A stretch of DNA of 60,542 bases, filler included, from Jimgerdemannia flammicorona (Eukaryota), in assembly GCA_003990765.1 (NCBI GenBank). It is 3 parts of 3 records of this genome, joined end to end, with 100 filler letters (N's around TTAATTAATTAA, not from the genome) between each part and the next. Parts side by side here need not be neighbours in the genome. Positions count along the whole stretch, not along the records: positions 40,432 to 60,542 come from RBNJ01001758.1; 2 more parts are not named here. One strand, written 5' to 3'. A model generated the notes under the pieces. That model saw nothing but the letters and a program-made list of their open reading frames with translations, had not been told where the DNA came from and did not search any database. The translations under genes were made by a program, and so were the position numbers. Numbering within the stretch: the first letter of the stretch is position 1; the number at the start of each line of letters is the position of its first letter. Shown here one piece after another: positions 1 to 60,542 of the stretch.

Positions 1-13
1 AAAAAAAAAAAAA

Positions 14-20116: not shown

Positions 20117-20216
20117 NNNNNNNNNNNNNNNNNNNNNNNNNNNNNNNNNNNNNNNNNNNNTTAATTAATTAANNNNNNNNNNNNNNNNNNNNNNNNNNNN
20201 NNNNNNNNNNNNNNNN
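20117..20216. other. Artificial contig linker (N44-TTAATTAATTAA-N44)
   Basis: Exactly 100 nt with a six-frame stop cassette; identical structure at 40332-40431. Confidence 0.98.
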
Positions 20217-30500: not shown

Positions 30501-30624
30501 TTCTTAACTTAATAAAGTCTAGTATCTTAATAGTCAGATTATTGAGATAGTGCAGAGTGGTAACAGTTACTTGTGTTGTTGTTTGGGGTTTTCAGTTAGG
30601 GCAGATACTGATCATGTATTCTGT

Positions 30625-36493: not shown

Positions 36494-36494
36494 A

Positions 36495-38721
36495 CCATAT
36501 ATTCTGTCCTTTAGCAATAGAAATACATATGCTCTACTTCTTTTAAGTCCATTTCTTTCTCCTTCAGTGAGTTTCTTAAAGGTACTTAGCTGGATAAGTT
36601 TAGAATTTTTGAGTATCTAAGAAGTAGATGTGAATGGGGCTCAGGATGATTTATGTTTGAGTTCTCTTTCTTAGTTCATGGTTTTTTCTTATTATGGAAG
36701 TTTTATGGCAGAATTGGTCTAGCTATTAGGATCTACTTGATCATAGTCTTAATTTTAGCTAGATGCTATTATTGTTGATTACAACTAACAGGATATTCTT
36801 ATTCTTGAAACTTTCTTATGAGCTATTCTGATAGTACATCAAATAAATGATATGCTCTTATACTATTTTGTGCTTTATAAATAGTGATATATTCTAGGCT
36901 AATAGTGTTCAGGAGTGACTTGAGTTTTGTACAGAAGGTTGTGAATTTCTCCTTGCTATATATATCAAATTTGAGGTTGTAGAGTTTAACTAAGGATTCA
37001 GCAATCAGAGTTTCACTATGATATTGTGCAATTATGAACTATTTGAGTCCAGGGACTACAGAGTGGTCTCTATTTAGAGGTATTATTTACTGTATTTTGA
37101 GTAATAACTATAGGTCAGATGTCTCATATGAGGGGTTTTTCTAAAAGGGTTCACCACTATTCTTTAGTAGGTTCTTGGAAGATTATAATAACTTAATAGA
37201 TATAAGCAGTGGTAGTAGTAAAGAGTTGTCAATAGTGAGATCTTAATTATTTGTTAAGAGGTAGCCAACAACTCCCTCATTGGTCTATTGATTAGCTTTG
37301 AAATTAGTATCTACTATATTAATAAAGCTTTCAACTTCTTATACAGTACTATTAAAGATAGATAGACTTAGGCTTTTTTTTGGCCAACTCTGTTCAGCTA
37401 GAGTAGTAATCATTGTTGCTATTATAACTATTTGGATTATAAGAACTAGAATTTGTTAGTTTGTATGTTGTTTACTAGAGGTAGTTGAACTACTGATAGT
37501 GGGTTACTAGTATAACTTAAAGTACTGGTGTAGAGTATAATGGTGTTCTTTGAGTCTGTATGAGTTTCAGGAGTAACTGTTATAGGTCTGGGGTAAGAGC
37601 TTGATAGATAACTGTCTGTTATTCTATGGATGTGTTTTGTCCTAAAGTAGGTACATCTTCAGCAGTATATTCAGAATTGAATTCAGTGAGATACTCCTCC
37701 TTCTCTTTACTTTAGTTGTTATATAGTTGGGTTTGTTTAGCATCAAAGTAGATAGTATCTATTGTATATCAGATTTCAGATAGGCTTAAATCAAAAGCTA
37801 GTTCTGGTTTTACTTTGGGTTCAGATAAGATTGTAGCTAGGCCTGCTTCTGGCTCAGAGTCTGATTATTGATGAAGAGTTTCCCTAACTTCTTCTTTAAG
37901 AATATAGTGAGTCTTGTAATTTTGAAAATGATAGTATAGAGTAGTCTTAGTACTAGTATGAAAATATTCAGTAGAGTTAAGTCACTTGGCTACAGAGACT
38001 TATATTTTATAATAGAAAGATAGCTGCTAGTTATCTTAGATCACTTGGATTTGTTAAACTTATAAAACTCTTATTGAGAAGAGTAAAGAAGACTTCTATA
38101 AGACCTTCTTCGTCCTGACTTACAGAGTGTAGAGTAAGGAGTTTGTTGAATAAAGTTATACCTATCTGCTGATTTAATTAAAGTTCTTCTTTATATGTAT
38201 AAAGCTTGTCTCACTTGTTATAGTTGTAGAGTTCTAATTGGCCTTATATGTCAGATTCAATTTACTCCAGATTATTAGATAGTTTGGGATAAATTTCTAT
38301 TTAGTGGTTGGGCTTTATACTAACTTGTAGGAATTTCTATTAATGGTTATAGATAAGTGAGCAAGTATCTTGAAGCAGAATTATATTGCAAACCACTCCT
38401 ATCAAGTTATAAGAGGGTACTCTATTAGAGTACCATTATGTAGTTCTAGAAGATTTTTCTAGAAGTTCTGAATATTGTGGAAGACTATTTTCTTTAAGGT
38501 CAAGATTAATTTCATATAGAGTATGTCCTTTATACTTATTGATTTCAAAATTGAGTTAATATCTCAACCAAAGTCCTTTCTCAGACTTATACTTGATGTT
38601 CAGAATTTTCTGTATTTTAGGAAGTTCAAGAAACTAAGACCAGTTTAGTTGAATTAGTATATTACTGCAGACAATATCCAATTAGAAAATTTCAGAATCT
38701 AGCTAGGAGTGAGACCTAATG
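36495..38721 (-). mobile_element. Gypsy 5' remnant: LTR (38408-38721), PBS-like site, gag; continues at about 30520-30610
   Basis: PBS-like ttgataggagtggt follows the LTR on the minus strand. Gag end FKKLTEGERNGLKR...FYC*RTEYMV|SICP is a zinc knuckle split by LINE C. Confidence 0.75.
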
Positions 38722-38784: not shown

Positions 38785-40331
38785 TGTAACAGTGACTTCA
38801 GAATAATGATATTAGTACAGGAGACAGTCTTTCCTTACAAGCCACCAGATTGAAGCACAAGAAGATTATATAACATATGAGATAAGCAATGGTGACCAAC
38901 TGTGAGTCATTGTGACCATAGTATAGTATCTTGAGAAATATAAAAGAAGGATCAAGGAACTGCAGTAACAGCAACCAACAAGACCTACCAATCCCAAAAT
39001 AGCTCAAAGACTCACTATAAATGAAATGCCTGCTGTCTGCCAAACCTCAAGGTCAAGGAACCACCAAGGCACCTTGGTTGAAGAGAGGATATTTCAAGAC
39101 ATCAGAAGAGCCATGAGGACCCACTTAAGAAGGACTTCTAGTGTCAATCTGAGTACTGATGACCCTTATCACTATATCCTCTACTACTGTGAAATGGAAA
39201 TCAGGATCACTATTGCTACCAAATATCTCCAAATATGGCAGGAGCATAAAATAGGAAACCTTCTCTGCTGGGAGTTCCCACAGGCCAGTACTCAAGAGCT
39301 ATAAGATACCACTCCCATAGATATATGTGAAACAAGGACAGCTAAGAAGATCCATCAGATCTTCAGGCATACATCATGGTTGATCCCAACTTAGAGTATA
39401 TTAGAGTCTCAGATTTCAGAGACCTGTCATCCTACCATATCAATGCACTAGAAGCCAGGGTGGCTACAGAGGCCCAGTCCACTATCACTCTCAATAGTGA
39501 TGAAGTAGAAGACTTCTAGCATCCTATCCTTCAGGACAACCCAGACCAATTCTTGCAAGGATTGATCTCAGTATTCTAAGACCCAAGTATCCAGATTAGA
39601 CCTCCCCAAGACCCCACATTTGTTCTCTATTTTGTGGAAGAGAACCTCATAGATTGGAGAGCCCCCAATTTCCCTGCCATCAAATGTGTTAACATCATTG
39701 GTAATGATGTCATCCCACATGATATATGCAAGACATATAATGAAGTATGTGAAGTATGTGAAACACATAACCTATACAATGACAACAACAAGACAAATGA
39801 GATGTTCATAGATCTTATCTCCTTTGAAGACATCCTGACCTCTGATGATGAAGCCCTTATAATCTTGAACATTCTGCTCTAAGTCCCCTGGTAACACTGA
39901 ATAATGCCAGTACTAATATTCTGATGTAACACTGAATAATGCCAGCACCAGTATTCTGATGTGACACTGAATTATACCAGAACCTTGAACCTATACAACC
40001 ATCAGTACTGACCCTAGAACTTAGCAGTTTTTCTTATCCTGGAATTTTATTTTAGTTATTGGAATTTATATTTAGCTTTATTTCTTAGTAACTATTGAAT
40101 TATATTTTGTATAAATACCCCTCTTATTTCCTCTGAAATAAAGTCAGTCTTCTCAGTGCAATATACACACTTTCTTGCAAGCAATCTAAGAGATAACAAG
40201 ACAGTTAAAGATAAGAAGTTTGAGGACTATAAGACCTTGGGAAGGCACTCCAATAAGAACTTGCTTATAACAAACTTGAGTTAGTCTAAGAGATACATCT
40301 TGAAGAGAATCTGGCATATTTGAAGGACTCA
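38785..40331 (+). mobile_element. ORF-bearing LTR-like unit, disrupted copy, cut by contig end
   Basis: Starts TGTAAC in a (TA)n tract and is collinear with 57249-58772. ORF 39026-39882 is broken by TAA at 39302, a frameshift near 39385 and further stops. Confidence 0.9.
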
Positions 40332-40431
40332 NNNNNNNNNNNNNNNNNNNNNNNNNNNNNNNNNNNNNNNNNNNNTTAATTAATTAANNNNNNNNNNNNN
40401 NNNNNNNNNNNNNNNNNNNNNNNNNNNNNNN
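40332..40431. other. Artificial contig linker (N44-TTAATTAATTAA-N44)
   Basis: Same 100-nt cassette as 20117-20216. Confidence 0.98.
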
Positions 40432-40439
40432 TTAATTAT

Positions 40440-43400
40440 AAGGACTTTTATAAATAAATCTCACCCAATCCTACAGAGAAGCTTCTTCTCTCCCTCACTA
40501 TTCTCCTAAAATACTACCCTCTCCTCTGCCATCCCAATCCTCCTCCCACTCTTCCTATAGATTATCTCTACTAGTTGTCTCTAATACCCCCCACCAGCCC
40601 CCCCACTCCCTTCACCACCCATTCAATAAGTCTATCATCAGCCACTCCTATCTAGCAACCCTTACTCCCAGTATTAGCCATTGACTCTTCTCAAATACAT
40701 ATAGCCAATATTCAGCAAGCTTCATCCAAGTAGCTAGCACTCACTCTAGTGTCAGCTACTCATTCTTTAACTTCCCCACCAGCCTCCTCTGGAGGTCTCC
40801 CCACCTCCCTCCCATCCCCAGCTCTGGTGGGTATACCTCTAGCCATATCTCAATTACTCTCCAAAAGTTACCCATCACCTCACACTCTCCTAGCCAATGT
40901 TCAGAAGCCTGTACCACTCCTCCCTCTTGTCTGATATTTAGATACTCCTCACACTCTCAAGTATCTCTTTCCACCAAGTGACCTGACTGATAGTTCAGTC
41001 TTATATTGCACTGTAGCAGTCTCCACCATACCACTCAGAACTTGGAGGGAATCTATCTTTCTGTCTACTTATTCTATAATTAAATACCATGCAAATTCCA
41101 CTCTTCTCCAATCCTCACTCCCTGCCATAACTCAGGCCACAGATCTCTTCTATGCTTCTAAAGACACTCCATACTATCCTCTAAGCAGAAGTCATCTACC
41201 AATAGAAGTTAGTCTCACCTCTACATCTGGGGTTCTCAGTCTTCCTCCCCCTCATCACCCCACTATTGGAGACCAATATGGTGAGCCCCATTAACTACTC
41301 TCCACCAGAATTCTCTTAAGTACATCCTCTGACTCCCCTCTAAGACTACCAGAGATAGTAGGTCTCCAGTCATACTATAGGAGGAGAACCAGGTCTCTCA
41401 TACCCTCTGTATGAGGGGAACTCACTCTCCACCCCTCAACTTGCTAGCTCACTTCAGCCACTATGCCCATAAGCAATGAAGGTGCTTGGGAAAATCCACC
41501 AGACCCAGGCCTTTCTGGTCCACTGGTAAGGTCAATACCTCTTAGCTAATCTGACTCCTTCACCCTGCTCATATCTAGATCCTAGTCATCTTCAATAATC
41601 TCTTGACCATCTATGCTGAAAAGTCTAAGTGAGACTACATGTACTATAGCTTAGGCAATCAGTATACATTCAGCACCATCACTCTCTCTGCCAGAGATAT
41701 ATAATGACCACCTTACTCTAAGAGAGTATGCCCCCACTCTGCCAACTGCTGCTCTTACTATCTGTGAGATAATAAGGAACCATATACTGAGAAGTAGATC
41801 CCCAGATAGTGAACAGCCTCTCCTATAGGAATAATTGTTTCAATTACATCTCTGCCTACTATCTCTCCTCTCAACACCAAAGTCTCACACTCATGTCAGT
41901 TGAGCTTAGCATCTGAGCACCCCTCATACCACTCTACTATACCTTTTAGCACCACTACATTCTCTACCAACTCTAATCTGATTACTATATTATCAGCAAT
42001 AGCTCCCACCTTCCAATTAACCCCTAGAATGTCCAACCCCCCCACCTTTCACTGAATCCTATCCAAAAGAGGCTCCAGGTACAGCACATATAGAATCAGC
42101 AATAGTGGAACCCCCTGCAGCACTTCTCTGCTCAGAGGGAATGAAACCTCCTTATATCTATTCATTATAATTACTGCCTAACTTCCTTCCAGCAGACTGA
42201 CCAAGACCCACTGGACCCCAGGGGGGACCTCTATATGCTTTAGTACTCCTTCCAACCATACTTGCTGGACCTTATCATAGTCCTTCTCTTGGTCTCAAAA
42301 AACCAGCTATCTATCTACCCTAGTGGTATAAGCTTCTTTAATGATACCATACATCTAGGCTGTCCTGACTCTGATCAAATATCCCCCTACAAATCCTCTC
42401 TGCTCAGCCCCCAGTATCTGCTGAGCCACTCCTTGCAGCCTAGTTATCAGTATCTTCATGACCAGCTTGCAATCCATATCTAAAAGAATAATTGGTCTCT
42501 AGTTTTTCCACTTCTCTCTCCTCTCCTTATTCTTAAACAGCAGAGCCACAAGACCCAAGCACTGCCACTCAATTCTCACCCTTGAGCTAATGACTTCATC
42601 ACACATCTCTATCATCTCCTTCAGAATCAGCATGACTCCTGCCATCTTCTTCCAAAAATCCCACAGTAATCTATCTTCCTTTGGTGCTATCTCTGAGCTC
42701 ATCATCATCAGTACCCACTGAATCTCCTCACCTCTGACAGAAGCACTAAGGTTACCTAAGCCTACTGCTAGGTCAGGGTGTCAAGCCTCCAGGTATCTGT
42801 CAATGTCTGGCACCCCCACCCCCCCTTCCTCCTCACTCCACAATTGTCCTTACTGTATACTCAACTGGTCCAAAATTTCTAGGATACCAACAATCAACTT
42901 CCCTGCATCATCCAATACTCCCTCCCATCTCTACCATACTCTCCTCACCTACAGAAGATATGACAAAAACTTTGTAGGCCTCTCTCCCTTCTCCAACTCC
43001 TGCTACCTCAGTTGAGCCATCATACTCTGTACCTGTAGGTCTTCCTCCTGTCTCAGCAATCCCTTCAACTCCTCCACCTCCAGCTGGATCTGCTGGGTCC
43101 TCCAATTCCTCTCCTCACTATTATTCAGCAGATCTGCTTAAGTTACCAACAACCTTGCCAACCTCTGGGAGACTCACCTCACTTACTTCCTCCTCTGAGT
43201 ACTATTATCCTTCCTGCCTCCCCCCAGTACTATTGCATATCTGACTTCAGTCACCTCCAATGACTCCCAATCAGCAGCCTCTTTACTCTCTAGCCAAGTA
43301 TCCTGGAGCTAATGTCTATCACTCATATATCCTATAAGGAGACCTCTCCTAGTAATGAGGTATTCAGGTGCTAATGTCCAGACTCCTCCCCATTTTCCCC

Positions 43401-46143
43401 AAAACTTCCCTCTCCCAGAAGGCCCCAGTAATTGGACCATGAGTACTAAATAGTTTTCAAAGTTCTCTAGATATTGACTTTCCAGCATTCAGCAGTTAAT
43501 ACCCAGTTAATCCTTGAGCCCAATCCTGCCACCCAGTGAGTATAGACCCTACAATCTCCCCATCTAAGTCTTCCAGTATCTACTAAAGAACTCAGCTATT
43601 TAACTTCCTCCTAGACTTCCATATCACTACACCTACTAGCTATCCCCCTTCCCCCATCAGTTCTGTCCATCTTCTCATCATATATCATATTGAAGTCCCC
43701 ACCTAGACAGTCTATCTCTGTCTTCACTAATGCTCTAGACTCTTGTAGCCCTCAAATCCATTCTATCCTCTCTCCCCTTTCTGCTGAACAATAATATGAT
43801 CCAACAGTCAAGGGTCTTTAGCCCAGCCTCTTCCAAACTCCCCACACTACCCTGCTCCTCCAGTATTCAATATCCCCAATCTCTCTCTCACTCTTTCTAA
43901 CCAGAATGCCCACATGTCCTCACCAAATAGCCTCACTACCCCATTCCTTCATCCAGTCCAGAATATCTAAGTTTTCATTGCACCCAACATTCTGTAGTAG
44001 AAATAAATCTATATCTAGTCCCTTCAGCCAGCTGAAGATATTTCAATGCCTCACCACTCCTCATAGCCCATTGATATTCAAAAAGAAGATTCTGGTTATA
44101 CTCTTCATATTGAATAATGTCTTTTAAAGAACAGTCACCCACTCTACAATTCTATGCTCACTGCATCACCAGCAATATTCAGATTTCTCTCTGTCTCAAG
44201 CTCATCTACCTCTCTCTGCTGAGCCTCCAATATCTTCAAGATCTCCTAATAATCAGAACCATCCACTGCTTCTATATCCATCCAGTACTTCTTGCACACC
44301 ATCTGCTACTTTGCCAGTCCCTTCCTCAGACCCTACAGATATGTAGTCCAGTTATTTGCAATTACCAGAAGTACTACCTCTCTTTCATGATCCACTTGAT
44401 ATATCTCAGCCTCTAGCAAAGCTGCTATTATCTCATCCCAGAGTTTCTGCAGCACCTTCTCACCTTACAGGATTTCACCCTAGTGTCTTTTGCTTAGTAT
44501 ACAAAAGTCCTAGGTTCTTAGTTGCTATATTCACCAGTATTTTCCATAGTCATTTCTCTCCATCAACAGTCTCCTCTACTCTCTAGGCCACCCCCTTCCC
44601 CTCTTCCACCTGCTCTCCCTCTGCATTCATCCTTACTGACTCATCCCAATCCTTCTCTAGCATATCTTACAATTTGTCATCTTCTCGGGCCCCTGCTGGC
44701 ACCCTATACTGAGGGGCTCCTTCTCTACCATCTCTTTATTTTCCATAACTATACTCTGTTCTGAGCCTCTGTTCTGAGCCTCTGCTCTCTCCTGAGATCT
44801 CCTTTGGTATCACTCCCTTCTCCCCTATCTAGGTACTTGCCCTCAACCCAATATCTTCAGTAGTAGTGATGATCTCTCTCCTCTACCCCCTCTCTCAACT
44901 TTGCCAATAGATCCTTCTGAATACACCTCTTCTATATCCTCTCCCAGACTGCCTGATCCAGCCACACCTTCTTACCATTCATGATCTCTACTACTGTCTT
45001 GGCCTCAAACTCTTTCCAGGGCAATCTCTTTCTCTCAATAGCCTCAGTCAGATTCTCAAATGTCTTCAGCAAGTCCTCATCTTCTTCTGATATCCCTTTC
45101 ACTCTTAAGATCTTACACTCCACAGGTCTCCATTTGAGGACCACTGGTCAGTTCCTTGCTTTCTCCATATTCTTCTTATCTACCAGTCATACTCTGATAT
45201 CTACATCTCTTGTCCTGAACTCTATGTCTTCACAGATCCAAAATCCAACATCCACAATATCTCTATACTTCTTGATGGCCTCTACAATCAACCTTCTGGC
45301 CATCTTCTTCAATACTATAGATATATCCACCACTATCAACTATACCACTTGAGGGTTCCAGTACAAGTACCTGGCTATAAAGATTGCTACTCCCCCTGCT
45401 ACCACTCCCTTCTCCATCACTTTCAGTAGTATATTCTCCTTCTTGAAGCCCACCTCTACCCCTTCCAGACTCTTTAAAAATTTCACTGAGGCTGCTTCCT
45501 TCATCTCTTGGGCCAGAAGCCTCAGAATCATCCTCATTATTACTGCCAAGCCCTGGAAATACAATGTGATGGCAAATTCAGACCTTGATTTCTTGAGTAA
45601 CAGTGCTGCCATCAGACCTATTATACTATCTGCCAGGTCTCTGGGCCTTGTGCCCACCCTCTGTCTAGATCTACTATCAACCATCACAACTGGATTTTTT
45701 TTCCAGATTAGTAGTCCTCTTGCTATTAGTAGTCCTGCTCCCCCCAGCCACTACTTCCCCAGCCCCACTGCTCTCACCACCATGGACCACACAACTAGGC
45801 TCCACAGCTCTCACTATCTCCTTACTCTTCCTCTACCAATCCTCCAATCCAGTTGATAGCTACTCCCCCTTCACCTTATTAGCAAAGCTCATCCTCCCAG
45901 TCCTATATCTCTCAGCACCACCTCCTCCCCTTCTATGTCCTCTAGCTAGTAAGTTCTGCATACTTTCCCTTAAGCCATAACTCCTCTCTACATACTGCCA
46001 GTCAAATGTACTAGGGCCACCCTACTCAGTATATACCTCAGAATACTTGTTGGTCACTATGTTTCCAATACCTATACTTCAAAAATGATATTGTGAGTAT
46101 TACCAGAAGTTTGTATAATCTGAATATTACTGAAGAAAGGTGC
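40440..46143 (-). mobile_element. Near full-length LINE copy D, degenerate
   Basis: 5' end GCACCTTTCTTCAGTAA at about 46143. ORF1 pieces at 45687-45340 and 45144-44932, ORF2 start near 44108, RT piece 42708-42499, 3' end near the contig edge. Confidence 0.92.
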
Positions 46144-46149
46144 TCAAGA

Positions 46150-48070
46150 GTGGGATTCTGATATAGATTATAGCTCTAGTAGAAAGTGTATGAGGAGTAC
46201 AAGAAGAAGATAAAGACCAAGAATAATGAGAAGATTACTGAGATACTGGCTGAATTGGATACTAAAAAGGTTAAGGAGGAGGAAGTAAATGTGGAGTATG
46301 ATCTGAACTTAGCTTAGAAGGAGATGAGTGTGAAATTATAAAGGAGATAGGACTACAACTTGCTAATATTTTTTATGAACAGTATAACTAATATTTTCTT
46401 ATTGAATATAAATAATTTACAGGGCTCTGTGAGATATAGAAATGTTTTTGCTTAGCTGCAGAGTTTAGAGACTGATCTTTTTCTGCTATAGAATATATAC
46501 TGAGAGAAAAAAGTAGATAAGCAGATATAGATGAGAGAGTGGAATAGTACAGGGGTTTGGAGAGGTAAGATGAGGGTACTGATATAAAGAGATAAGAAGG
46601 AACTATATAAGATTATGGGATGGAGAGACTACTTAGTATAGAGGAAGTAGTAAAAATCAGAGTAGAATTCAGTAATAGTAGGCTCTTACTATTATCTAGT
46701 GATTAGAAGTGACTGACTAGAGTAGCTAGATAATCTTTATAAGTGTAGCATATTTGCTAAAGCTAATATAGATATACTGAATAGGGACTTTAATATAATA
46801 CAGAATATACTATTAGACAGAACTGATAAAGAGAAATATATAGTGGACTATAGTGGTGGTTTGAATATTTAAGAGGAAATAAAATATCTGAGTACCTTAG
46901 TAGATACTAGTAGAATGTTGTGAGGTAATAGGAGAGTTTATACACATTGAATGAATAGACTTAGAATAAGAATTAACTAGATGCTAACTGCTGATTACTG
47001 GAAAATAGAAGTCTAGGTAGCTCTGGAGGTAGAGTAGTACTTATGGTCTGATCATTGAGGGCTTTTGGAGTATGATCTGTTTAGGAGAAGTAGAGATGGG
47101 CCTGGATATTAGCATCTTAATTCCTCTTTATCAGAGGTGAAGAAGTTATGAAATGCTTAAGTAAAGAATATTGAGATAAAGATTATTTACTGGAAATATA
47201 AGAGATCTTCAGTAAAGATCTATTAAGTGAAGTTGAAAAAGACTGCTAGGGTATATTGAAGTGAGAATGAAAGGTTTAAAGGGGCTCAGCAGTTGTAGCA
47301 GGTGCAGTGGGTCTCCTACAGAATAGAGAGATTATAGTTTGAGTAAGCAGAGATATTAAAGTGAGAGAATATAGAAGATTAGAGACTGAGATGAGCTCAG
47401 CTTGAGGTGAGAGTATTGAGAGAAGAGAAGAAAACTCATGTATAGAGATAGCAGCTCAGCTATAGTGGTAGAGGCTTGAGAAAGATAAGAGATCTACTAA
47501 GTATCTATCTAGGCTTCTTTAGACAAAAAGGGTGATATGGCAGTAAGATAGAGTACTAGATAGGAAGAGTACTCTGGTAAGGATTTTGGGTTCTTTGAAG
47601 GATAGATAGCAAGGTCTGAAGAGTGAGAAGAAGAGAGTATTGATAAGAAGGCTATTGAGTACTTTCTGAATAATTAATATCTCTCACTAGTTAATAGTAT
47701 TGGAGACTTAGTTCAGCTAGTCCAGAAGACTGAAATATTGAGTATCTTGTTAGCTACAAAACAGAGCATGGTTCCAGGTGAAGGTGGCCTGCCTTAAAAT
47801 GTTAAAAGAAGATGGTTAGAGTCTCAGGAGTATTGGGGGAGATAACAGTGCTATATGACTTTGTCCTTATATCTGGAGAGTAAATTGAGTATCAGGAACT
47901 CAGTCTGGTGATACTGCTATATAAACATAAAGACAGGAGAGAGGATTGGAAGAATTGGAGGCCAATTATACTTCTAGATATAGACAGAAAGTTAGTTATA
48001 AAGATGATTATTACAAGATTATAAAGAGTAGTCCAACAGATATTAGGGATTGAGCAGAGGAGTTTTGTTA
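46150..48070 (+). mobile_element. LINE fragment E (ORF1 end, APE, RT start), heavily decayed
   Basis: atgaacagtataactaatattttc ORF2 start at about 46375, with GDFN, SDH and EDWKNWRPIILLD remnants. Confidence 0.88.
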
Positions 48071-48927
48071 GGAGTTTTGTTGAGAGACTCTCTGGTGAAA
48101 GGGGTGCCTATAGTGATAGCTGTAGAGACAAGGTAGAGGGTAGTAGAGATGATGATAGAATATAGTGATATTGTAGATATTAGATTCTGGGTCTGAGAGA
48201 TGATCTCTTTCTGAATCAAGAATGTTGATAATAGGCTCAGGTTAGCTAGAAGAGAGGCTACTAGAAAGGCCTGAGACTAGTCATTAGTGATAATATAAGG
48301 TGTTTTATTTATAAGATAACAAGGATAAAGAGGAGTGAGGAGGAGGAGGAGGAGGATCTGCTTGAGATACTGGAGGACTTAAGTGGGGCAGTGAAGTATT
48401 GAGCAGAGGCATAGAGGAAATATGTGGCTTCTATCTACTTGAAGGTGGTGGATGGGAAGCATATTTGAATAGACAAGATACTATAGGAGAAGACTCAGGA
48501 GAGGAAGAGACAGAGAAATTTGCTGGCTAGATTGAAGGTAGGGCTAGTGGCTGGGACAGAGAAGAGCTCAGAGAGAGCACCAGAGAGTACTTGGATTACT
48601 ATCAGTATAGAGAGATAGGTAGAGAGTGAGGGAGTGAGCAGAGAAGTGAGGGATCAGCAGCTTTATAATGATGGTGTGCTTGAAGTATGGGAGGAGGAGG
48701 TAGATAATATACAGACTGTAGTCTCTAAGCAGAGGACTGGCAGAGATGTTGAAATAATGGATACCTATAGAGTTCAGTTTGGGGTGTCTGATGTCACAAA
48801 AGGGGGCAGAGTGGTTGGCATCAAGATAGATGAGTTAGTGGATATTCTAGAGGAGGTATGAGATAAGGCTGTAAGTACTAAAACTGATATTATGATATTA
48901 ACTAGTGGGAGACCTGAGACTCCTGGA

Positions 48928-49477
48928 TAGTGCTCTGAATGAGTCAATTTAATCCAGATTGGATTCAGATTGGATTCAGATTGAATCCCATCTGGATCAA
49001 CTTGGATAGAAAATGAGCTGATCTGGATCAACTTGAATTGACTATTGTTTTGATTTCAAAATTAGATAATTAAATCATTACATCTATAACTTAATGAATA
49101 ATCATCTAATATTGATGATCTTGGTTTCATTTGAAAGCCCTTAATAAGGTCTTTCTAATTATACTAAGAACATTAAAATCGGATTACACCTTGCTGAGCT
49201 ATCAAGAAAAACATTATTTTGAAGAAATTTCCAAAATCAGCAAGTCAAAAATTGCTGAGTTGGATATTTTCCTTGATAACTCAGCAACTCATGATCCAAT
49301 TTCAATGTTCTTGATATTATTAGAGAGGCCCTATTAAGGGCTTTCATATGAAACTAAGATCATTAAAATTGAATGATTATTTGTCAAGTTATTGATTTAA
49401 AACATTTAATTGTCTAATTTGGAAATCAAATCAATGGTTGATTTGAATTGATCTAGATCAGCTCATTCAGAGTACTA
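48928..49477. mobile_element. hAT-related MITE (550 bp)
   Basis: TIR TAGTGCTCTGAATGAG / CTCATTCAGAGTACTA, similar to the hAT end at 9828. Degenerate 8-bp TSD ctcctgga / cttctgag (differences are transitions). Long internal inverted repeats. Confidence 0.88.
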
Positions 49478-50969
49478 CTTCTGAGGAAAAGAATATTGGG
49501 AACTTATAATAAATATATATAATGATATATTATCTAATAGCAGAGGAGTTGGGTGAGATGAACTTAAGAGTAACCAGTAAGGAGCACTGGAAAAGGATCT
49601 TGTGAGGGGATGGTGTAGTGGAAGCTCTGAAGTCTGAGGTATTGGCAGTGTATCTAAAGAAGGAGAGTTACAAAGTAGATACTATAATAGAGGTAAAATT
49701 GACTGTAGCTGCTAGAGAGTAGGCTATTTACTGGAGGAAGAAGTGAGATGGTTTTCTACTTTGACAAGAGATATATCTGATGTATAAGGAAGAGATAGAG
49801 GAGAAGGACAAGGAGAAAATAGCTGAACTTCTAGTGGGACTAGAGACTAAGAAGGTAGAGGATGAGGAGGCTACTACAGGATATGAACTAGATATGGCCA
49901 GAGAGAAGATGAGTGTAGGACTTTGAAGAGGCTGGGACTCTTATATTATTATTTACTATGAATAGTATAACTAACATTTTCTTACTAAATGTGAATAGTT
50001 TGAGGGGCTCTGTGAGATATCAACAAATTTTCTCTTAGCTGAAGAGATTGGAGGCCAATCTCTTTCTTTTGCAGAATATATACTGAGAGGAGAACTTGGA
50101 TGGGCAGGATTGGACTAAAGAATGGGGCAGTGTAGCAGTTTGGAGGATCAAGGTTGGAATTCTAGTACAGAGTAGCAAAGATAAACTTTGTGAGGTTGGA
50201 GGCTGGAGTGACAGATTGGTTTGAAAGAAGTAGTATAGGTCAGGGTAAAAGTCTGTTATTGTTGACTTCTGTTATTATCTAGCAGTATATAGTGAGCAAA
50301 TTGAGTGATTAGAGGAACTCCAGGAGGGTGGGATGCTGGCTGAGGCAGGAGTTGATGTACTTGGAGATAACTTTAATATGGTTTATAATGAATTATTAGA
50401 CAGAACTGATCAAGGGAGAAGTGCTGGTAGCTGTAGTGATGGTCTGGAGATATGGGAGGAGATAGAGAAATTGGGCTCTTTGGTAGATATCAGCAGAGTA
50501 ATGTGGGATAACTAGTAGATCTATACTCACTGAGTGAATTAACTTAGAATAAGGATTGACTAGATACTAATAACTGATTACTGATTAAATATATAGAGAA
50601 TATTAGAGGTTGAGTGGTACTTATGATCTAACTATTGAAGATTGTTAGAGCATAGTCAGTTTAGAGAAAGTAGAGATGGATCTAGACATTAGTGCCTTAA
50701 TTCCTTCTTGCTGGCCAAGCAAGGGCTATGAGATGCTTGAGTGAAGGACATTGGCCTGAAGATCATTTGCTGGAATCAGGAGAAGTATCCAATCAGAGTA
50801 TGATGAGCAAGGCTGAAGGAGGCTGCTAGGGTTTATTGAAGAGAGGCTGATAGATTTACTAGAAGGCAGCAGTATAGAAGAGTGAGGTGGTCCTCAGTTT
50901 GGTTGGTCTAATTGCAGATAGATTGTGTAGATGTATTGGGCCTAGAGGCAGGAGATTATTGGTGACTAG

Positions 50970-51423
50970 TATGATAGTTCTAGTTTCTTTAAGAGAAAGT
51001 AGCTAAGACTAGCAATTCTGATAGACCTAAAGTTACTTAAAGAGATACTTAATGGTTTAAGTATTCTTAAAGGAATTCTAAGAAAGCTTTATTTAAGTAG
51101 AGAATAAGGATATTTATACAGGATCTGAAAGAAAGATCTGGAAGGATCTCAGAAAAGAAGAGAAAAGTCAAGAAATAAGTTCTCAACAAAGATAAATAAT
51201 AATATTCTACAATGTTCCAAAAGGTTCTATAATTAGCTAAGACTTGAGACTTAGTACTAAAAAAAGACAAGAATATTCTAGTGAAGTCTTGGTACCAAGA
51301 GAAGATTTCTAGACATTCAGAAGATACTGAAACATAGTAGAATATATAAGAAAAGATAAGAAAAGACCAGTAAAAAGACATAAAAAAGTACTAAAACTAA
51401 AATATGATTATAAAATTATTACA
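50970..51423 (-). repeat. 3' LTR of the chromovirus
   Basis: Direct repeat of 56536-57001; adjacent PPT. Confidence 0.93.
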
Positions 51424-54400
51424 TCTCTTTCTCCTTAAGAACCAATGTCCTCATTGAGTTTTTAGGTAGCATAAGACTAAATATACTTAACCAAAATTTC
51501 CCAAACTTATATTAGTATATTTATAAGGACTGGTCATCCTTCTATAGGGCAGAGGGTCTATTATTAGACTAACTAACTAAGAGAGATTTAAACTCAGCTA
51601 GTAGCTTCATTTCAGTAGACTTCTTATTCACTAGATGTTCTACTAGTTCTGGGGTCCTAAAGTAAACTTCTAATATATAAGACACTAGTTATTGCCATAG
51701 ATCATTAATAATTCAAGGAAGTCACTATAGGGATTAGATAATATATTTTGTCTCAAAGTCTTGAACTAGATCTTGAGAGTTCTTGGGATTGATCAGTGGT
51801 TCCCAGGTAGTATCATATTCAGGATAGTCTGTTCACTTGACTAAGTATTCCAGATAACAGTAGCAGATTTATTTTTCAAGGATTTTCTTGATCTTGTACT
51901 CAATATGATCTTCAATAATCATAAAAACAGATGGCTTGGAAATTCAACCAGAGTAGGGTGGTGACTGGTTCTAGGTCTTGAGGTAAGATATATAAAAAAC
52001 TGAGTATACCCTTATAGTTTCAGATAATAGGAAGATACAGAGACTTGTTCAGTAATCTCAAAGAGTCTAATATACTTAAATTAGAACTTATTTGACATAT
52101 AGTTGACTTGAGATTATATTTTGAAGTTCTTGGTAAACAGTAGGACTTAATCTCTAATAGTGTAGATAATATTATGGTATTTCTTATTAGCATACTTGGC
52201 TTGATGCTATTGGGTTTCCTAAAGATTCATGGTAGCAATCTTGAGTAGTTTGCTCATTTTGTCTATAAGGTTCTTAGTAGTAGAGACTTATATTTAACTC
52301 TTTTCTTGAAAGAGACTAGACTTATAGAGATCTCAGGATCTTGACTATAGAGTAGCCAAAAGGGGGGAAGACCAGTAGATAATTGAATAGTATTATTATA
52401 TACAAATTCTGCATATGTCAAGTAATGATCTCATTTATCTTACTTATAAGAAATATAGTTTCTGAGTATTTGTTCTAGAGTTCTATTCATGCACTTTGTT
52501 TGTCCATCAGTTTGTAGGTAGAAGGCGGTAAATATAGCCAATTGAATTCTCAGGGTCTTGAAGAGAGTTTGCCAAAAGTGACTAGTGAACTTGGGGTCAT
52601 GATTACTGACAATTACTCACAGTAGACCATAGTGACAGAAGATGGACTTGAAGAAGATTCTTGCAATCTTGAGTGCAGTAGCATTGGTAGTAGTTGGTTT
52701 GATAACTATGGTTTTGGTCAGATGGTCAATAAATATAATAATAGTATCAGCTTCAGATTGAGTTTATAAGAGTTGAGTTACAAAGTCCATTATAACTTAT
52801 TCAAATTTCTTGGTCAGAATTAATAGTGATTGTAGCAAACTAGTTGATGCTTGGTTAGTAGGCTTGTTCTGTAGCTAGTAATATAGTTCTTAATTTTCTT
52901 AACCATACTTGACCAATAGTAGTAATACTAGATGTTCTTGACTATTTTCTCAATTCCAAGGTAACTAGAAAAAGGAGAGTTATAGTGTTCTTACAGAATC
53001 TTATAGTAGAGATTTATGTTATCAGGTAGGTAGACTTTGTCTTAATAGTAGATCAGGTTGTTCTTAATGATATATGTATCCTTGAGCTCATTTGAGAAAA
53101 CTCTAGTAATAATAGTATCTTCTTCATAAGCTTGTCTAATTTGGTCTAGAAATTCAGATACAAAGGTGACTTGTATAATTGTAATAAGATCTGGATATCT
53201 AGACAAGATATCTGTTACTATAAGTACATATCTTTAAATGATTATCGAATTGAAGGTTTGAAGCTTTAGGCTCCACTTGGCTTATAGATATAATAGAGTA
53301 GGTTGGATATTGATGTTCTTGAATGCTTGATGGTCAGTAATGATATCAAACTCAATACCTTCTAGATAGCAGCACTAGTGGTCTAGTGTATATATTATTG
53401 CCAGTAGCTCTTTCTTATAAGTGGCTAGCTTTTGTTTAGCTAGGGTCAACTTGTGAGACTTGAAGGCAATAGGGCAATGTCCTTTGCCATCATCTTGTAA
53501 CAGAACTACTCTAATGGTAAAATTTGATACATTAGTAATAATGGTGAATTTTAGACTTAGATCTATATTATATAGGACTAGAGTATAGGTCAGGCAGTTC
53601 TTGAGTTCTTAAAAGGCTTATTGACAGAAGAGGTCTCAGGTATAGGATACATAGTGTTCAGAGTGAATGCCAGAGAAGTTTCTGACAAAGCAATGATAGT
53701 AACCAGCTAGACCAAGAAAGGACTTGAGTTCTGTGAGATTTGATGAAATAGACTATTTCTGAATTACCTCTATCTTGTACAGATTTACTTGAATTTCTTA
53801 TGCAGAGACAATATGGCCAAAATATTTAACTTATTCTTCAAAGAATTCACACTCTTGAGCTTTGAATAAAGCTGGTGTTTTCACAAGATTTCCTGAACTA
53901 CTCAAATATACTTAAGGTATTCTTCTTTAGGTATACTAAAGATCTAGATATCATCATGATATACTAATAAGAAGATGAATAGTTAGTTCTTGAATATCTT
54001 ATTCATGAGGGTCTGAAAAGTGGCAGGTGCATTGATAAGACCAAATACTAGGACTAGAAATTTGTAGGGTCCAAAGGAGATTATAAATATGTATAGTCTT
54101 GGGGATATCTTCTTACTTAATTTGGATTTGATAGTATTCTGACATAAGGTCCAACTTAGTGAAGTACTTGGTATTCTTAAGAGTATCAAAAATTTGATCA
54201 ATCATGAGTAGTAGATATTGATTCTTAACTATAAGATTAATGAGTATACAGTAGTCTATGTATATTTATAAAGTACTATTTTTCTTTTTGATAAATAGGA
54301 CTGGTGAGTCATAAGGAGATTTATTTGGTTTAATGACTTCTCATATAAGTAGTTCTTCTAGTTCTTTCTTAACTGTCTCAATTTTGAGAGGTAATATATA

Positions 54401-55450: not shown

Positions 55451-56535
55451 CTTCAGATGAAACTTCTTAATCTTGAGTTCAGATTGACTAATAGTGGAGT
55501 TGGCAGGTATGTCTTTGGATGATATGGTGACTGGTCTTGAAGGTTTGCTGGTCTTCTTAGAATATTTGGTTACAATGTTTCCTGTTTGGCAACAGAAGTA
55601 ATAAGCTTCAGATTTCTTCAAGTGGTCTTTCTCTTTTAGAGTAAGCTTGTTATTCTTCTTCATAGCATCTAGATCTATTAGTACTGAGCCAAATACTTTG
55701 AGTGGGTTCTTGTGACAGTTCTCAAAGTAGTTCTTCTTATATATTTTAGTTCAAAGTAGTTACCAAAGATGATTATATCTAATCTATCAGTAATCCTCAT
55801 AGTCTCATTGAGAGTTTGTAGCTCTTCTAGCTTAACCTTAACTTATGTATTTTCTTTCAGATCTTGGATATAGTGGTCTATCTTTTTATCTTTAGATATT
55901 ACTAGTAGTTTGAGTAGAATTGACAAGAATTATACATTGTAACTTTGTACAGATTTGAGTTACTTGATATTCACTAGCTTATCTTGGGCTAGCTTAGTAG
56001 TATTAGTAGACTTGAACTACTGGTAGAGGGTCTCCTTGAAATATTTCTAGTTCTGAATTCTTATTTTTGAGTATATAGTAGTTATAATATGATTGTACTA
56101 CCAGATGGCTGCATTTCCTCAGAGAAGTATAATAGCAAATTAGACTTATATATCTTTTTTCATTTTTGTAAGCTCAAAGTATTGATCCAATTAGAAGATC
56201 CATATATCTGTAGTTAGTTCTTCTTGATGACCATCAAAGATATCTAGCTTAAGTAGCTTAAAACTAACTAGTATAGTAGCAGGATGTGATACAGCTGTAG
56301 TCTTAGTCTTCTGATATTCTAGTTGTGTATGAAGTTGTCAGATTTGATAGACTATAGTAGTAATTATATCCTCTAGATTGAATTGTAGTTTGATACCATC
56401 CGCTTCTTCTATAGCAGAGTAGGCAAGTTCTCTAGCACAGCTCATTTTGGACTTATGTGACTAGTTGTAACTAGTTTCTGAATTCATGTGAGGTTTCTTA
56501 ATAAAATTAGGTATAACAATACTGCTGCTACTAAG

Positions 56536-57001
56536 TGCAATAGTTCTAGTTTCTTTAAGAGGAAGTAGCTAAGACTAGTAATTCTGATGAATCCAAAATA
56601 GCTTAAAGAGATACTTATAGATTCAAGTATTCCTAAAGAAATTCTGAAAGAAAATATTCTGAGCTTTATTCAAGTAGAGAATAAGGATATTTATACCAAA
56701 TCTGAAAGAAATATCTGAAAGGATCTCAGAAAAGAAGAGAAAAGCCAAGAAATAAGTTCTCAGCAAAGATGACTAATAATATTCTACACTGTTCCAAAAG
56801 GTTCTATAACTAGCCAAGACTTGAGACTTGGTGCCAAGTAAAGATCAGAATGTTCTAGTGAAGTTTTGATACCAAGAGAAGATTTCTAGATATTTAGAAG
56901 ATACTGAAATATAGTAGAATATATAAGAAAAGATAAGAAAAAACTAGCAAAAAGATGCAAAAAAAATACTAAGACTAAAATATAACTATAAAATTAATAC
57001 A
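56536..57001 (-). repeat. 5' LTR of the chromovirus
   Basis: Direct repeat of 50970-51423; adjacent PBS-like site. Confidence 0.93.
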
Positions 57002-57248
57002 GCTAGATGGTACTAAGTTAGAGATAGCAGAGTTGCAAAGAGTATTGAGAGAGGAGAAGAAATCTTATATAAAAGAAATGATAGCTTAGCTGAGATAACA
57101 GGAGCTTGAAGAGAGTGAGATAATGGTGGAATGGTATACTCAATATAGAGAGCTCACTAGTATATGAAATATAGTAGATCTTGAGTTCTCTGAAGAGGCA
57201 GTGGGGAGATCTGTAGAGTGAGGAGGAGAGTAGTGCTGATATGTATAT

Positions 57249-58789
57249 TGTAATGGTGACCCCAGAATGATGACATCAGCACAGGAGACAGCCTTTCTTT
57301 ACAAGCCACCAGATCGAAGTACAAGAAGATCATATGGCATATGAGATGAGCAATGATGACCAACTGTGAGTCATTGTGACCACAGCACAAGCATCCTGAA
57401 GAATATAAAAGAAGGATCAAGGAACCGCATTAGCAGCAACCAACAAGAACCACCAATCCCAAAATAGCTCAAAGACTTACCACAAACAAAATGCCTGCTG
57501 CCTGCCAAACCTCAAGGTCAAGGAATCATCAAGGTATCTTAGTCAAGGAAAGGATGTTCCAAGACATCAGAAGAGCCACGAGGACCTGCTCAAGAAGGAC
57601 TCCTAGTGTCAACCTGAGTACTGCAGACCCCTATCACTTCATTCTCTACCACCACAAAATGGAAACAAGGATCACCATTGCCACCGAATGCCTCCAAATG
57701 TGGCAGGAATATGAAATAGGAAACCTCCTCTGCCGGGAGTTCCCACAGGCCAGCCCTCAAGAGCTACAAGATGCCACTCCCATGGACCTACATGAGGCAA
57801 GAACAGCAAAGAAGATCCATCAGATCTTCAGACATGCACCATGGTCGATCTCCAACTTGGAGTATGTTAGAGTCTCAGACTTCAGAGACCTGTCATCCTG
57901 CCATATCAATGTACTAGAAGCCAGGGTAGCCACAGAAGCCCAATCCACCATCACCCTCAACAGTGAAGAAGTAGAAGACTTCTGGCACCCTATCCTTCAG
58001 GACAACCCAGACCAATTCCTGCAAGGATTGATCTCAGTATTCCAAGGCCCAAGCATCTGGGTTAGATCTCCCCAAGACCCCACATTTGTCTCCTATTTTG
58101 TGGAAGAGAACCTCATAGACTGGAGAGCTCCAGATCTTGTCCCTGATTTCTCCGCCAAACGTGATGATGTCATCGGCGATGACGTCATCCTGTATGACAT
58201 ACCCAAAGCATGCGAAGAATACAAAACATGTGACAATGAAGTACATGAGACACGTGGCCTGCATGATGAATTCGCAGACCTCATCTCCTTCAGTGATGAT
58301 GATGATGAAGCTCTCATGGTCCTGAACTTTCTGCTCTAAGTTCTTTGTTACACTGGATAATGCCAGCACCGGTATTCTCATATAACACTGGATAATGCCA
58401 GTACCGGTATTCTGAGGTGATGCGAAATTGTTCCAGCACCGGCATTTTGATGTGATACTGGATAATGCCAGCCCTGGACCTTAGTAGTTTTAGTTATTGG
58501 AATTTATATTTAGCTTTATATCTTAGCAACCATTGAATTATATTTTGTATAAATACCTCTCTTATTTCCTCTGAAATAAAGTCAGTCAAGTTCCGGTTTC
58601 ACTTATACACACTTCCTTGCAAGCAATCTAAGAGATAACAAGACAGTTAAAGATAAGAAGTTTGAGGACTATAAGACCTTGGGAAGGCACTCCAATAAGA
58701 ACTTGCTTATAACAACTTGAGTTAGTCTAAGAGATACACCTTGAAGAGAATCTGGCATATTTGAAGAACTCAGCGACTACTACGTGACA
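57249..58789 (+). mobile_element. 1541-bp solo-LTR-like unit carrying an intact ORF
   Basis: Ends TGTAAT...GTGACA with ATAT on both flanks, interrupting LINE F. TATAAAA at 57404, ORF, about 33-bp tandem repeats (58347-58475), TATAAATA at 58548, AATAAA at 58575. Confidence 0.8.
57491..58339 (+). CDS. Hypothetical 282-aa protein encoded within the LTR-like unit; acidic C-terminus
   Basis: Uninterrupted ATG-to-TAA ORF in an acaaacaaaATG context with CpGs partly retained. Disrupted paralog at 39026-39882. Confidence 0.75.
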   Translation: MPAACQTSRSRNHQGILVKERMFQDIRRATRTCSRRTPSVNLSTADPYHFILYHHKMETRITIATECLQMWQEYEIGNLLCREFPQASPQELQDATPMDLHEARTAKKIHQIFRHAPWSISNLEYVRVSDFRDLSSCHINVLEARVATEAQSTITLNSEEVEDFWHPILQDNPDQFLQGLISVFQGPSIWVRSPQDPTFVSYFVEENLIDWRAPDLVPDFSAKRDDVIGDDVILYDIPKACEEYKTCDNEVHETRGLHDEFADLISFSDDDDEALMVLNFLL

Positions 58790-59619
58790 ATATATAGTAG
58801 CTATTGAGCATACTCTGGAGAATTGACACTCTCTATATGTGGATGGTCTTAGTGATCTAGTTGTGCTGGTCCAGAAGGAGGAGATCAAGTAGATTCTTAC
58901 TAATACAAAGGTGGGTATCATGTTAGATGAGAATGGTCTGCTCTGAGACTTTTGGAAAAAAATAGTATTAGTCTTAAGGATATTGGAGGAGATAGCAGTA
59001 TTGTGTAATTTTGTACTCATATCTGGAAAGTGGGTCAGAGAGAAGGATCTTAGCCTAATTATACTACTGTTTAAAGACAAAGACAGACAAGAGGATTGGA
59101 AAAACTAGTGATCAGTTATACTTCTAAATATAGACAGAAATATGGTTATGAAAGTGATTGTTATATAACTACATATAAAGATGACCCAATAGTTGCTAAG
59201 TGAGGAATAGTGGGGCTTTATTAGAAGTTATCTTATAAGAGATAAGGCAGCTTAAGTACACTGTATTATTGAAAGAGTAAGAGCTAGTAAGTTTAATAGA
59301 AGATTAGACTTTTTGGACCAGAAGAAGGCCTATAATTATATATAGAGTGTTTGGCTAGAGAAGATATTAGACAGGATTGATATCTCTCAGCAATTCTAGG
59401 TATTAATGATTAGTCTATTGGAGAGTAGCAGGGCAGTACTTATATGTAATAGTCACTATAGTATTACATATATTCTTACTAGAGAGATAAGTTCCTCAGA
59501 GAGACCCATTGTCTCTCATTCTATATACTCTATTATTAGAACCTTTAATAGATAGGATTTACTGTAAGATAGTAGAGCTCTCAATTTATAAAATTGTTTA
59601 GAAAATTAGAGCCTTTGCT

Positions 59620-59730
59620 TTAATCATAAAGGTATAGTGGAAGGTCTTCCTAGAGTAATTGGATAGTGGGTTGGAGCACTGTAATTATATCTTGATAGAC
59701 TGAATGGGTAATAAATGACAGAGTCTAAGT

Positions 59731-59770
<40 letters not shown>
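59620..59770 (+). mobile_element. 5'-truncated LINE 3' stub with poly(A) and TSD
   Basis: AATAAA near 59710, poly(A) 59737-59770. TSD aattagagcctttgct (59604-59619) / agttagagtctttgct (59772-59787). Confidence 0.88.
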
Positions 59771-59855: not shown

Positions 59856-60542
59856 CCTTTTGAAAGTGGAAGTCCTGATGCTTCAAAGATAGAATCACAA
59901 TATATCAACATGGCTTCTTACAAGATCACTAAGCCTGCAAGCACCACCCTGGCCAACAAGATCAAACTCACTATTGCCCAGGCCCTTCTCGACCTGGAAA
60001 ACAACATCCTTGAGCTGAAGAAGGAGTTGAGGCCTTTGTAGTTCTCCACTGCTAAGGAGATTGAACTTGGTGGTAGTAAGAAGACTATTGTTATCTTCAT
60101 TCCTATTCCCCTACTGAAGGCATTCCACAAGATCCAGCAAAGGCTCACCCATGAATTGGAAAAGAAGTTCTCTGACTGCCATTTCATCTTCATTGCCCAG
60201 TGCTGCATTATGTGTAAACCCACCTGCCACACCCACCAAAAGCAGTCTCACCTGTATTCGTACACTCTGACCACTGTCTATGAGAAGATACTGGAGGACT
60301 TGGTCTACCCCACTGAGATCATTGGCCAGAGGACCCATGTTAAGGTTGATGGTAGCAAGATTGTCAAAGTATTTCTTGATAACAAGAATACCACTTCTAT
60401 TGAATATAAGCTAGACATCTTCTTGTCTGTCTACAAGAAGATCATGGGCAAGGATATCGTGTTTGAGTTCCCCCCAACTCTGAGTTGCTATAAATGTTGT
60501 GTCTACCACTAAAAGAGATGTCAAACAATAAATGCTTATCTT
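59856..60542 (+). pseudogene. RPS7: Processed pseudogene of 40S ribosomal protein S7 (eS7)
   Basis: ATG 59910 to stop 60512, intronless: IAQALLDLENN...ELKKELRPL*FSTAKEIELGGSKK...ELEKKFSD...ILEDLVYPTEIIG...EYKLD...YKKIMGKDIVFEFP. In-frame TAG at 60039, many Arg to Cys/His changes, AATAAA near 60527. Confidence 0.96.

Follow-up and report, generated by a model that had tools for sequence, protein, structure and literature searches.

Can the long terminal repeat (LTR) of a simple retrotransposon house a complete protein-coding gene? LTRs are usually viewed as non-coding promoter and terminator modules, and the textbook exceptions are vertebrate retroviruses. The question is raised by a 1541-bp insert at positions 57249-58789 of a 60542-base stretch of DNA from the early-diverging fungus Jimgerdemannia flammicorona (assembly GCA_003990765.1), referred to below as the window. 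Inside the insert lies an open reading frame (ORF) of 282 amino acids, and an initial annotation had proposed a unit resembling a solo LTR with an intact gene inside its U3 region. We rate the locus as a case in which an early-diverging fungus hosts an LTR retrotransposon whose LTR carries an accessory gene, the encoded protein belonging to a new family. The full reading, which we consider probable on balance, holds that the insert is the solo LTR of an Endogonales LTR retrotransposon and that its U3 would contain an ORF cassette with a promoter of its own, coding for an accessory protein kept by selection.

The repeat unit and its boundaries

The window consists of three pieces of about 20.1 kb, joined at 20117-20216 and 40332-40431 by N44-TTAATTAATTAA-N44 linkers, across which adjacency and distances are artificial. 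The insert, its flanks within a long interspersed nuclear element (LINE) and a second copy of the unit are located as follows.

57249-58789, plus strand: solo LTR (copy A), 1541 bp, TG...CA, delimited by comparison with copy B and by contig depth in four runs
57245-57248, plus strand: left target-site duplication ATAT, 4 bp; the same four bases recur after the unit and the LINE continues on both sides
58790-58793, plus strand: right target-site duplication ATAT, from a check of the sequence
56509-57248, plus strand: host LINE, upstream part, 84.5% identical to 50946-51426, with 57142-57241 matching 47545-47645
58794-59770, plus strand: host LINE, downstream part, before and through the reverse-transcriptase region, with a 34-nt poly(A) run at its end; 58800-59618 matches 1781-2592, where RVT_1 was found
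38785-40331, plus strand: second copy of the LTR (copy B), located on a different contig, with 0 CpG, three in-frame stops and a frameshift, cut about 17 bp short of the LTR 3' end

The unit begins with TG (57249-57250) and ends with CA (58788-58789), and the weakly inverted ends described for it amount to a match of TGT...ACA. All coordinates given in the initial annotation for a 1541-bp TG...CA insert with ATAT on both sides proved true on checking, and the TATA boxes at 57404 and 58548, the AATAAA at 58575 and the 282-aa ORF were likewise found at the positions assigned to them. The clean split of the LINE is borne out by two other LINE copies of the window, in which the sequence runs on over the insertion point: 57155-57240 and 58802-59617 are collinear with 33958-34043 and 34052-34860 in the first copy, and 57142-57241 and 58800-59234 with 47545-47645 and 47651-48081 in the second. 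In both, the LINE halves to the left of 57241 and to the right of 58800 adjoin within 5-8 bases, with indels of a few bases. Contigs from public sequencing runs were placed on the stretch at a likeness of at least 80% (four coded runs, X1, X2, X4 and X10), and the unit is covered by 1990 contigs from X1, 460 from X2, 184 from X4 and 62 from X10. The contig depth summed over these four public runs is 0-35 in the bins beyond 57244-58803 and reaches tens to thousands within. The unit is a genuine repeat with exactly these edges. A target-site duplication of 4-6 bp could be checked at one insertion only, that of copy A, because copy B is cut by the end of its contig.

Copy B is 80.8% identical to copy A over 1580 alignment columns, and both begin with TGTAA. 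We considered and rejected the idea that the two are the LTR pair of one element, since they lie on different contigs that were joined artificially. Copy B has meanwhile become a pseudogene. The two LTR copies are the only places in the window that are matched by the proteins of the ORF family described below.

Both copies stand in a strongly depleted sequence environment. The observed/expected (o/e) ratio of CpG is 0.13, 0.21 and 0.04 in the three pieces, GpC being normal, and C>T and G>A changes dominate the differences between repeat copies. Depletion and substitution pattern are as expected for heavy CpG methylation of repeats, and the extreme CpG depletion across the window fits the heavily methylating host assumed in the initial annotation. 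Copy A retains 21 CpG (o/e 0.28), against 0-1 in the host LINE and 0 in copy B, and because of this excess over the host LINE we take copy A to be younger than the latter. According to the review PMC10386755, the genome of J. flammicorona measures about 240 Mb and consists to more than 77% of repeats.

Flanks of the unit in public contigs

The loose ends of contigs leaving the unit (24 of 206 loose-end rows) give a view of what adjoins it elsewhere. Before 57249, an identical sequence, ...CAGGAAGATCCTTATTCAGGAGGAAGA, is present in at least nine contigs (five from X1, one from X2 and three from X4), which come from three runs and three studies. The shared upstream flank, ...TTATTCAGGAGGAAGA, ends as a run of ten purines, AGGAGGAAGA, directly against the TG, in the manner of a polypurine tract (PPT); an internal region would be expected to finish in this way where it meets a 3' LTR. 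After the unit, the sequence A-CT-TGGTGCCCATTGG, i.e. CT-TGGTGCCCATTGGCT..., is common to at least two contigs (one from X2, one from X4); here a TGG stands three bases past the CA, a layout like that of a primer-binding site (PBS). We regard these recurrent PPT-like and PBS-like flanks, which abut the ends of the unit, as the strongest argument that it is an LTR, and they suggest a family with full-length members; they speak only indirectly against the possibility, raised in the initial annotation, that the unit never flanks gag-pol. Copy A itself is a well-supported solo LTR, because the same LINE lies on both of its flanks. The solo-LTR assignment made at the outset is thereby backed by the TG...CA termini, the 4-bp duplication, the LINE on both sides and the PPT- and PBS-like flanks of other copies.

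A preference for AT-rich targets is suggested by the ATAT duplication, the AT-rich flanks of copy B and matches of X10 contigs that extend 2-4 bases further into ATAT. Contigs of X2 and X4 also exit the LTR at about 57780-57805 into a common AT-rich sequence (...TATAGATATATGTGAAATAAGGAT), which points to a subfamily whose ORF is truncated or interrupted by a further insertion. Viral contigs, scanned both for a 24-nt word from U5 and by means of the protein alignment, returned 0 loci. A metagenome-contig locus with 32% identity to residues 97-174 (L001) was discarded as spurious, having no ORF of at least 60 aa over the match and an unrelated neighbourhood. The only gypsy-type fragment in the window, RT_RNaseH_2 (E 4.6e-17), occupies 53378-53608 on the minus strand; it lies 3.6 kb upstream of the solo LTR, is non-adjacent and not evidently related to it.

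The ORF and its family

The interior of the unit is ordered as follows.

57367-57373, plus strand: TGAGTCA, 31 bp upstream of the first TATA box, kept in copy B at 38903; a weak lead only
57404-57411, plus strand: first TATA box, TATAAAAG, identical in copy B; candidate promoter of the ORF mRNA
57491-58339, plus strand: ORF of 282 aa; basic N-terminus, conserved core predicted to be helical (about residues 45-215) and acidic C-terminal tail with DLIxF and (V/I)LNF; pN/pS 0.24
58352-58472, plus strand: tandem repeats, 3.5 copies of a 35-bp unit, with CTGGATAATGCCAG and ACCGGT palindromes; candidate enhancer by position
58548-58555, plus strand: second TATA box, TATAAATA, identical in copy B; candidate genomic-RNA promoter, with the U3/R border about 25-35 bp downstream
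58575-58580, plus strand: AATAAA poly(A) signal, conserved in copy B; it would serve both the ORF mRNA and the genomic RNA
58606-58789, plus strand: presumed U5, ending in CA, a tail nearly identical in copies A and B

The ORF extends from an ATG at 57491 to a stop codon at 58337-58339. Among the codons that differ at a single position between copies A and B, 50 carry synonymous and 44 non-synonymous changes, corresponding to proportions of synonymous and non-synonymous differences (pS and pN) of 0.29 and 0.069 and a pN/pS of 0.24, which becomes 0.20 if codons with a CpG are left out. In the two shifted frames, this alignment yields pN/pS values of 0.89 and 1.38, and the three reverse frames give 0.40-1.34. 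Positions within the ORF account for 28 of the best 40 of 281 variant rows, 15 of the 28 being synonymous third-position changes. To judge from these comparisons, the view that the ORF is a real gene under purifying selection is well supported; the intact gene with a dN/dS away from 1 that the initial annotation had in mind agrees with the value of 0.24 vs 0.89-1.38 in the control frames.

Nine relatives of the ORF protein were found in all, at 29-89% identity, including five at 56-84% identity (from 404 word-sharing candidates). An exhaustive HMMER search against 1.84 billion representatives delivered six matches with E<=0.001, five of which are credible, namely P0001, P0008 (42% identity), P0009, P0010 (a 342-aa protein, 36% identical over residues 18-281) and P0011 (33%). 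We regard the remaining match, to a bacterial protein with a fibronectin domain (E 1.3e-4), as due to chance. This search was unrestricted in length and revealed no longer or fused form, the longest true match having 342 aa. All relatives are encoded on short JGI or ENA contigs of 720-4848 nt and carry either no name or that of a hypothetical protein. Distant members share the MP start, the motifs DLIxF and (V/I)LNF are kept across subfamilies within an otherwise variable acidic tail, and residues 142-215 are near-invariant among the close homologues.

Searches for known protein families gave a consistently empty result. Pfam contains 0 families matching the ORF at E<=1, and with the nine family members it returned noise-level ATG5_HBR hits in two of the nine only; a PDB sequence profile search had 0 matches at E<=10. 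Profiles of gag, pol and transposase proteins (capsid, zinc-knuckle, protease, reverse transcriptase, RNase H and integrase) had no match to the ORF family in Pfam or in the exhaustive search, and the remark that the ORF shows no gag, pol or transposase motif thus holds with 0 Pfam families. Structure prediction followed by Foldseek, which had been named as a useful check, was carried out and found no fold match against PDB for a low-confidence model (0 matches at E<=0.001, best E 1.1). The best score in the ESM Atlas was 0.86, under the lead threshold of 0.9, with unrelated clusters.

Signals inside the LTR and proposed mechanism

No ATG occurs between the first TATA box and 57491, which would leave a leader of 55-60 nt, and the context of the start codon, ACAAAATGC, is good. 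The ORF ends 236 bases upstream of the sole AATAAA. Between the two lie the repeats, for which a period of about 33 bp had been given; tandem repeats are indeed present, but the period is 35 bp, and copy B contains 2.7 tandem copies at 39891-39984. The second TATA box follows 75-195 bp past the repeats and 27 bp ahead of AATAAA, after which an indel-rich stretch extends from 58587 to 58604. From 58481 to 58772, copies A and B differ at 17 of 288 aligned bases (94.1% identity), almost none of these differences lying past 58606. The TATA box at 58548, the AATAAA at 58575 and the conserved tail of about 185 bp stand in the order of promoter and poly(A) signal expected of U3-R-U5, as far as sequence evidence goes. 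A search of 57000-59000 against Rfam produced a sub-threshold match only (E 0.089).

From this arrangement, we infer how the element may have worked. It would have inserted into the LINE with a 4-bp ATAT duplication and afterwards been reduced to a single LTR. Transcription from the TATA box at 57404 would produce the short leader followed by the 282-codon ORF, with the 3' end formed by means of the LTR's own AATAAA at 58575, while the 35-bp repeats and the second TATA box would act as enhancer and promoter of the genomic RNA. The ORF would accordingly be placed in U3, R would be short (about 58580-58600) and the conserved last 185 bp or so would represent U5. Short R regions with the poly(A) signal beside the start are found in mouse mammary tumour virus (MMTV) and Rous sarcoma virus (RSV). 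Under this scheme, any LTR, be it 5', 3' or solo, could give rise to a 3'-coterminal mRNA of about 1.15 kb from the first TATA box, and the genomic RNA would hold the ORF once, at its 3' end. Since the gene sits wholly within the LTR, it is spread along with every copy of the repeat. The protein would then be an element-encoded accessory factor that is under purifying selection in active lineages.

As to what this protein may do, its first 40 residues are basic (+9/-2 in the close subfamily, less in the distant P0010), its core is predicted to be helical, and its last 80 residues have a net charge of about -20 and are rich in F, L and I. Nuclear regulators that have an acidic activation domain typically show such a pattern. 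Our best guess is that the protein acts in the nucleus to regulate how the element itself is expressed, perhaps as a transactivator on the 35-bp repeats or as an RNA-handling factor; this guess draws on composition and motif position only, because both structure models are of low confidence. The more specific idea of an element-encoded activator of its own LTR acting via the 35-bp repeats derives from the acidic-tail pattern and the tandem palindromic repeats just upstream of the presumed genomic promoter, and we put it forward tentatively. The widest version of the proposal would be an LTR gene with its own promoter and the LTR poly(A) signal, present in two expressible copies per integration and leaving solo LTRs coding for long; its product would be a new trans-acting regulator, either an acidic-tail activator on the 35-bp repeats or a factor countering methylation-based silencing, that is supplied in trans from hundreds of LTRs. 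We consider this version possible but doubtful.

Weighing the evidence

Several observations weigh against the interpretation favoured here. Neither a full-length element nor gag-pol nor an LTR pair on one molecule was seen in the window and the loose-end rows shown, and the internal region is represented solely by 30-nt loose-end consensuses. The PBS-like flank comes from just two contigs. A search of the window with the PPT-side pattern gave matches with three mismatches only and no convincing internal region, the PBS-side pattern had 0 matches, and a tRNA scan of the window detected 0 genes. The U3/R assignment is drawn from signals in the sequence, and the first TATA box could be the genomic promoter. 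TGAGTCA, which we take to be a bZIP (AP-1/Gcn4-type) consensus, is a weak lead only, because with 10 occurrences in the window vs 11.5 expected by chance it is not enriched. The selection comparison comprises one pair, A and B, of which copy B is a pseudogene, and the 40 of 281 variant rows were selected by the tool. Metagenomic homologues could sit outside LTRs, and gene callers report open frames only, which biases the sample. The two AlphaFold2 models are of low confidence, with mean pLDDT values of 50.0 and 45.8. Finally, copy A differs at nine sites that are invariant in close homologues. Seven of these replacements trace to C>T or G>A changes, four of the nine put C or H in place of R, and the gene at this locus may no longer function. 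Because of such deamination-type replacements at otherwise invariant residues, copy A is probably a relic in decay that has kept its reading frame, and its open frame is no proof of a functional locus.

The nearest rival keeps the solo LTR and reverses the roles of the two TATA boxes. Here the one at 57404 drives the genomic RNA, R would span about 1.15 kb (about 57435-58600) and contain the ORF, which would come first on the genomic RNA, upstream of gag, and be repeated at the RNA 3' end; the second TATA box would be incidental or serve a second RNA pool. The first TATA box is as well conserved as the second, the leader is free of upstream ATGs, the start context is good and no observation fixes the start site, all of which suits a long R. 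LTRs of plants with two TATA boxes and separate RNA pools, as in BARE, also speak for it. On the other side, the poly(A) signal would then fall within the 5' R at a distance of 1.1 kb from the cap, so that genomic RNA could arise only if this signal were bypassed, and the repeats, with a TATA box 75-195 bp on and AATAAA a further 27 bp on, form the usual layout of a U3 end. To our knowledge, an R exceeding 1 kb would be a rare exception, and we regard this arrangement as unlikely.

Two further explanations concern the gene itself. It could be a recently captured host gene or passenger without a role in the element, or the unit could be a non-autonomous LTR-like carrier that lacks gag-pol, of the type of large retrotransposon derivatives (LARD) or terminal-repeat retrotransposons in miniature (TRIM) or of another type, the selection signal then stemming from the function of the gene in the host. 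The missing gag-pol beside any copy in the window and the loose-end rows shown speaks for this, the homologues P0001-P0013 may sit in any genomic context, and gene capture by LTR elements is documented in parts of PMC5408684 and PMC4299795. No homologue, however, has a host-type annotation or a Pfam domain, the relatives are all found on short environmental contigs (720-4848 nt), as expected for repeats, and the family proteins match the window at nothing but its two LTR copies. Identities of 29-41% with start and tail motifs kept suggest, without proving it, a long residence in the family, and this alternative as a whole, capture or carrier, appears quite improbable to us. That the open frame is fortuitous or dead, a chance ORF without a protein product, would be in line with the deamination-type replacements of the window copy, the lack of a known domain and the poor structure models. 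Such a frame would hardly show a pN/pS of 0.24 where the shifted frames give 0.89 and 1.38, homologues at 36-42% identity whose frames stay open over 214-342 aa, and strongly block-wise conservation with residues 142-215 almost invariant among close homologues, and we give this possibility very little credence.

Neighbouring sequences in the window

On the third piece, an intronless copy of the eS7 gene (RPS7) at 59911-60476 contains an in-frame TAG at 60040-60042 and many replacements of R by C or H, which gives it the look of a processed pseudogene in decay through CpG deamination. At 97% identity, the 183-aa public ribosomal protein S7e of Jimgerdemannia flammicorona (P0015) appears to annotate this eS7 locus, and the entry may be a mis-annotated pseudogene. 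The next-best matches, at 64-75% identity, are unnamed or belong to other early-diverging fungi.

The LINE copies at 1-4100, 30000-36500 and 46000-51500 on the plus strand and at 40500-46000 on the minus strand have a very strong sense-strand skew of G over C, of up to +0.5 at about 50% GC, G being roughly three times as frequent as C, which is unusual for LINEs. Among the LINE domains are Exo_endo_phos at 450-1559 and RVT_1 at 1943-2830. The first piece closes (20050-20116) with C-rich tandem repeats of a CCCGGCCCCACCCTCACCCG-like motif, which may be satellite DNA or an artefact of the contig end, and GC is very low, 18-24%, at 24000-28000 in the second piece.

Comparison with known systems

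If the proposed reading is true, LTR-borne protein genes also evolve in simple retrotransposons. Solo LTRs, commonly masked and disregarded, would in that case be able to code for protein and might provide active elements with a factor in trans. An element-encoded regulator would then be a candidate for how families keep amplifying in a repeat-rich, CpG-depleted genome.

Outside the retroviruses, a gene inside an LTR is known to us solely from the Cassandra TRIM elements, whose LTRs contain a 5S rRNA gene. Like Cassandra, the fungal element would have a gene unit with its own promoter in each LTR, solo LTRs included, whereas the Cassandra gene is an RNA gene of the Pol III type in plants and the fungal cassette is protein-coding, of the Pol II type. 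A conserved protein family without known relatives inside a fungal LTR would add to this picture. For an ORF inside the LTR of a non-retroviral element, no precedent was found in the literature searched; the parts of the fungal LTR survey PMC3248453 that were covered mention no LTR-borne ORF.

The fungal gene sits within the LTR itself, so that every integration duplicates it and solo LTRs retain it. This sets it apart from the additional ORFs (aORFs) of plants, rotifers and C. elegans, which reportedly belong to the internal region, where they precede gag or separate pol from the 3' LTR, often in antisense. Such extra ORFs are described for LTR retrotransposons of plants, bdelloid rotifers and C. 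elegans (Cer1) in parts of PMC7264820, PMC5408684 and PMC10309623, and a term search of the accessible part of PMC7264820 met no mention of ORFs located in the LTR. Like the aORFs, the fungal ORF would be a conserved gene that an LTR retrotransposon carries in addition to gag and pol, and many aORFs likewise lack an assigned family.

Retroviruses offer closer analogies. The genes nef of HIV/SIV and bel/bet of foamy viruses overlap U3 of the 3' LTR, Tas acts with an internal promoter, and Tax of HTLV works with three 21-bp repeats in U3. The fungal arrangement would resemble these in having an accessory or regulatory gene at the 3' end that reaches into U3, a dedicated second promoter and short tandem repeats as response elements, the latter role being proposed here for the 35-bp repeats. 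In contrast, nef and bel/bet overlap the LTR only, whereas the fungal ORF is located wholly inside it and shows no homology to them. A transactivator role like that of Tax or Tas, as we infer it from charge distribution and motif position, may apply to the fungal protein.

Sag of MMTV, a superantigen, is encoded by an ORF in U3 of the viral LTR. The fungal unit shares with it an LTR of more than 1.2 kb, an accessory ORF of about 300 codons in what would be U3 that is dispensable for reverse transcription, a presumably short R and a poly(A) signal near the promoter. It differs in belonging to a fungal retrotransposon and not to an infectious vertebrate retrovirus, in its ORF having 0 Pfam families at E<=1, and in the ORF starting 243 bp into the LTR behind a TATA box of its own. 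Because searches with Pfam, PDB and Foldseek gave no homology to sag, nef or bel/bet, the likeness is one of architecture and not of membership; in layout, MMTV sag is the nearest parallel to the gene in this fungal LTR.

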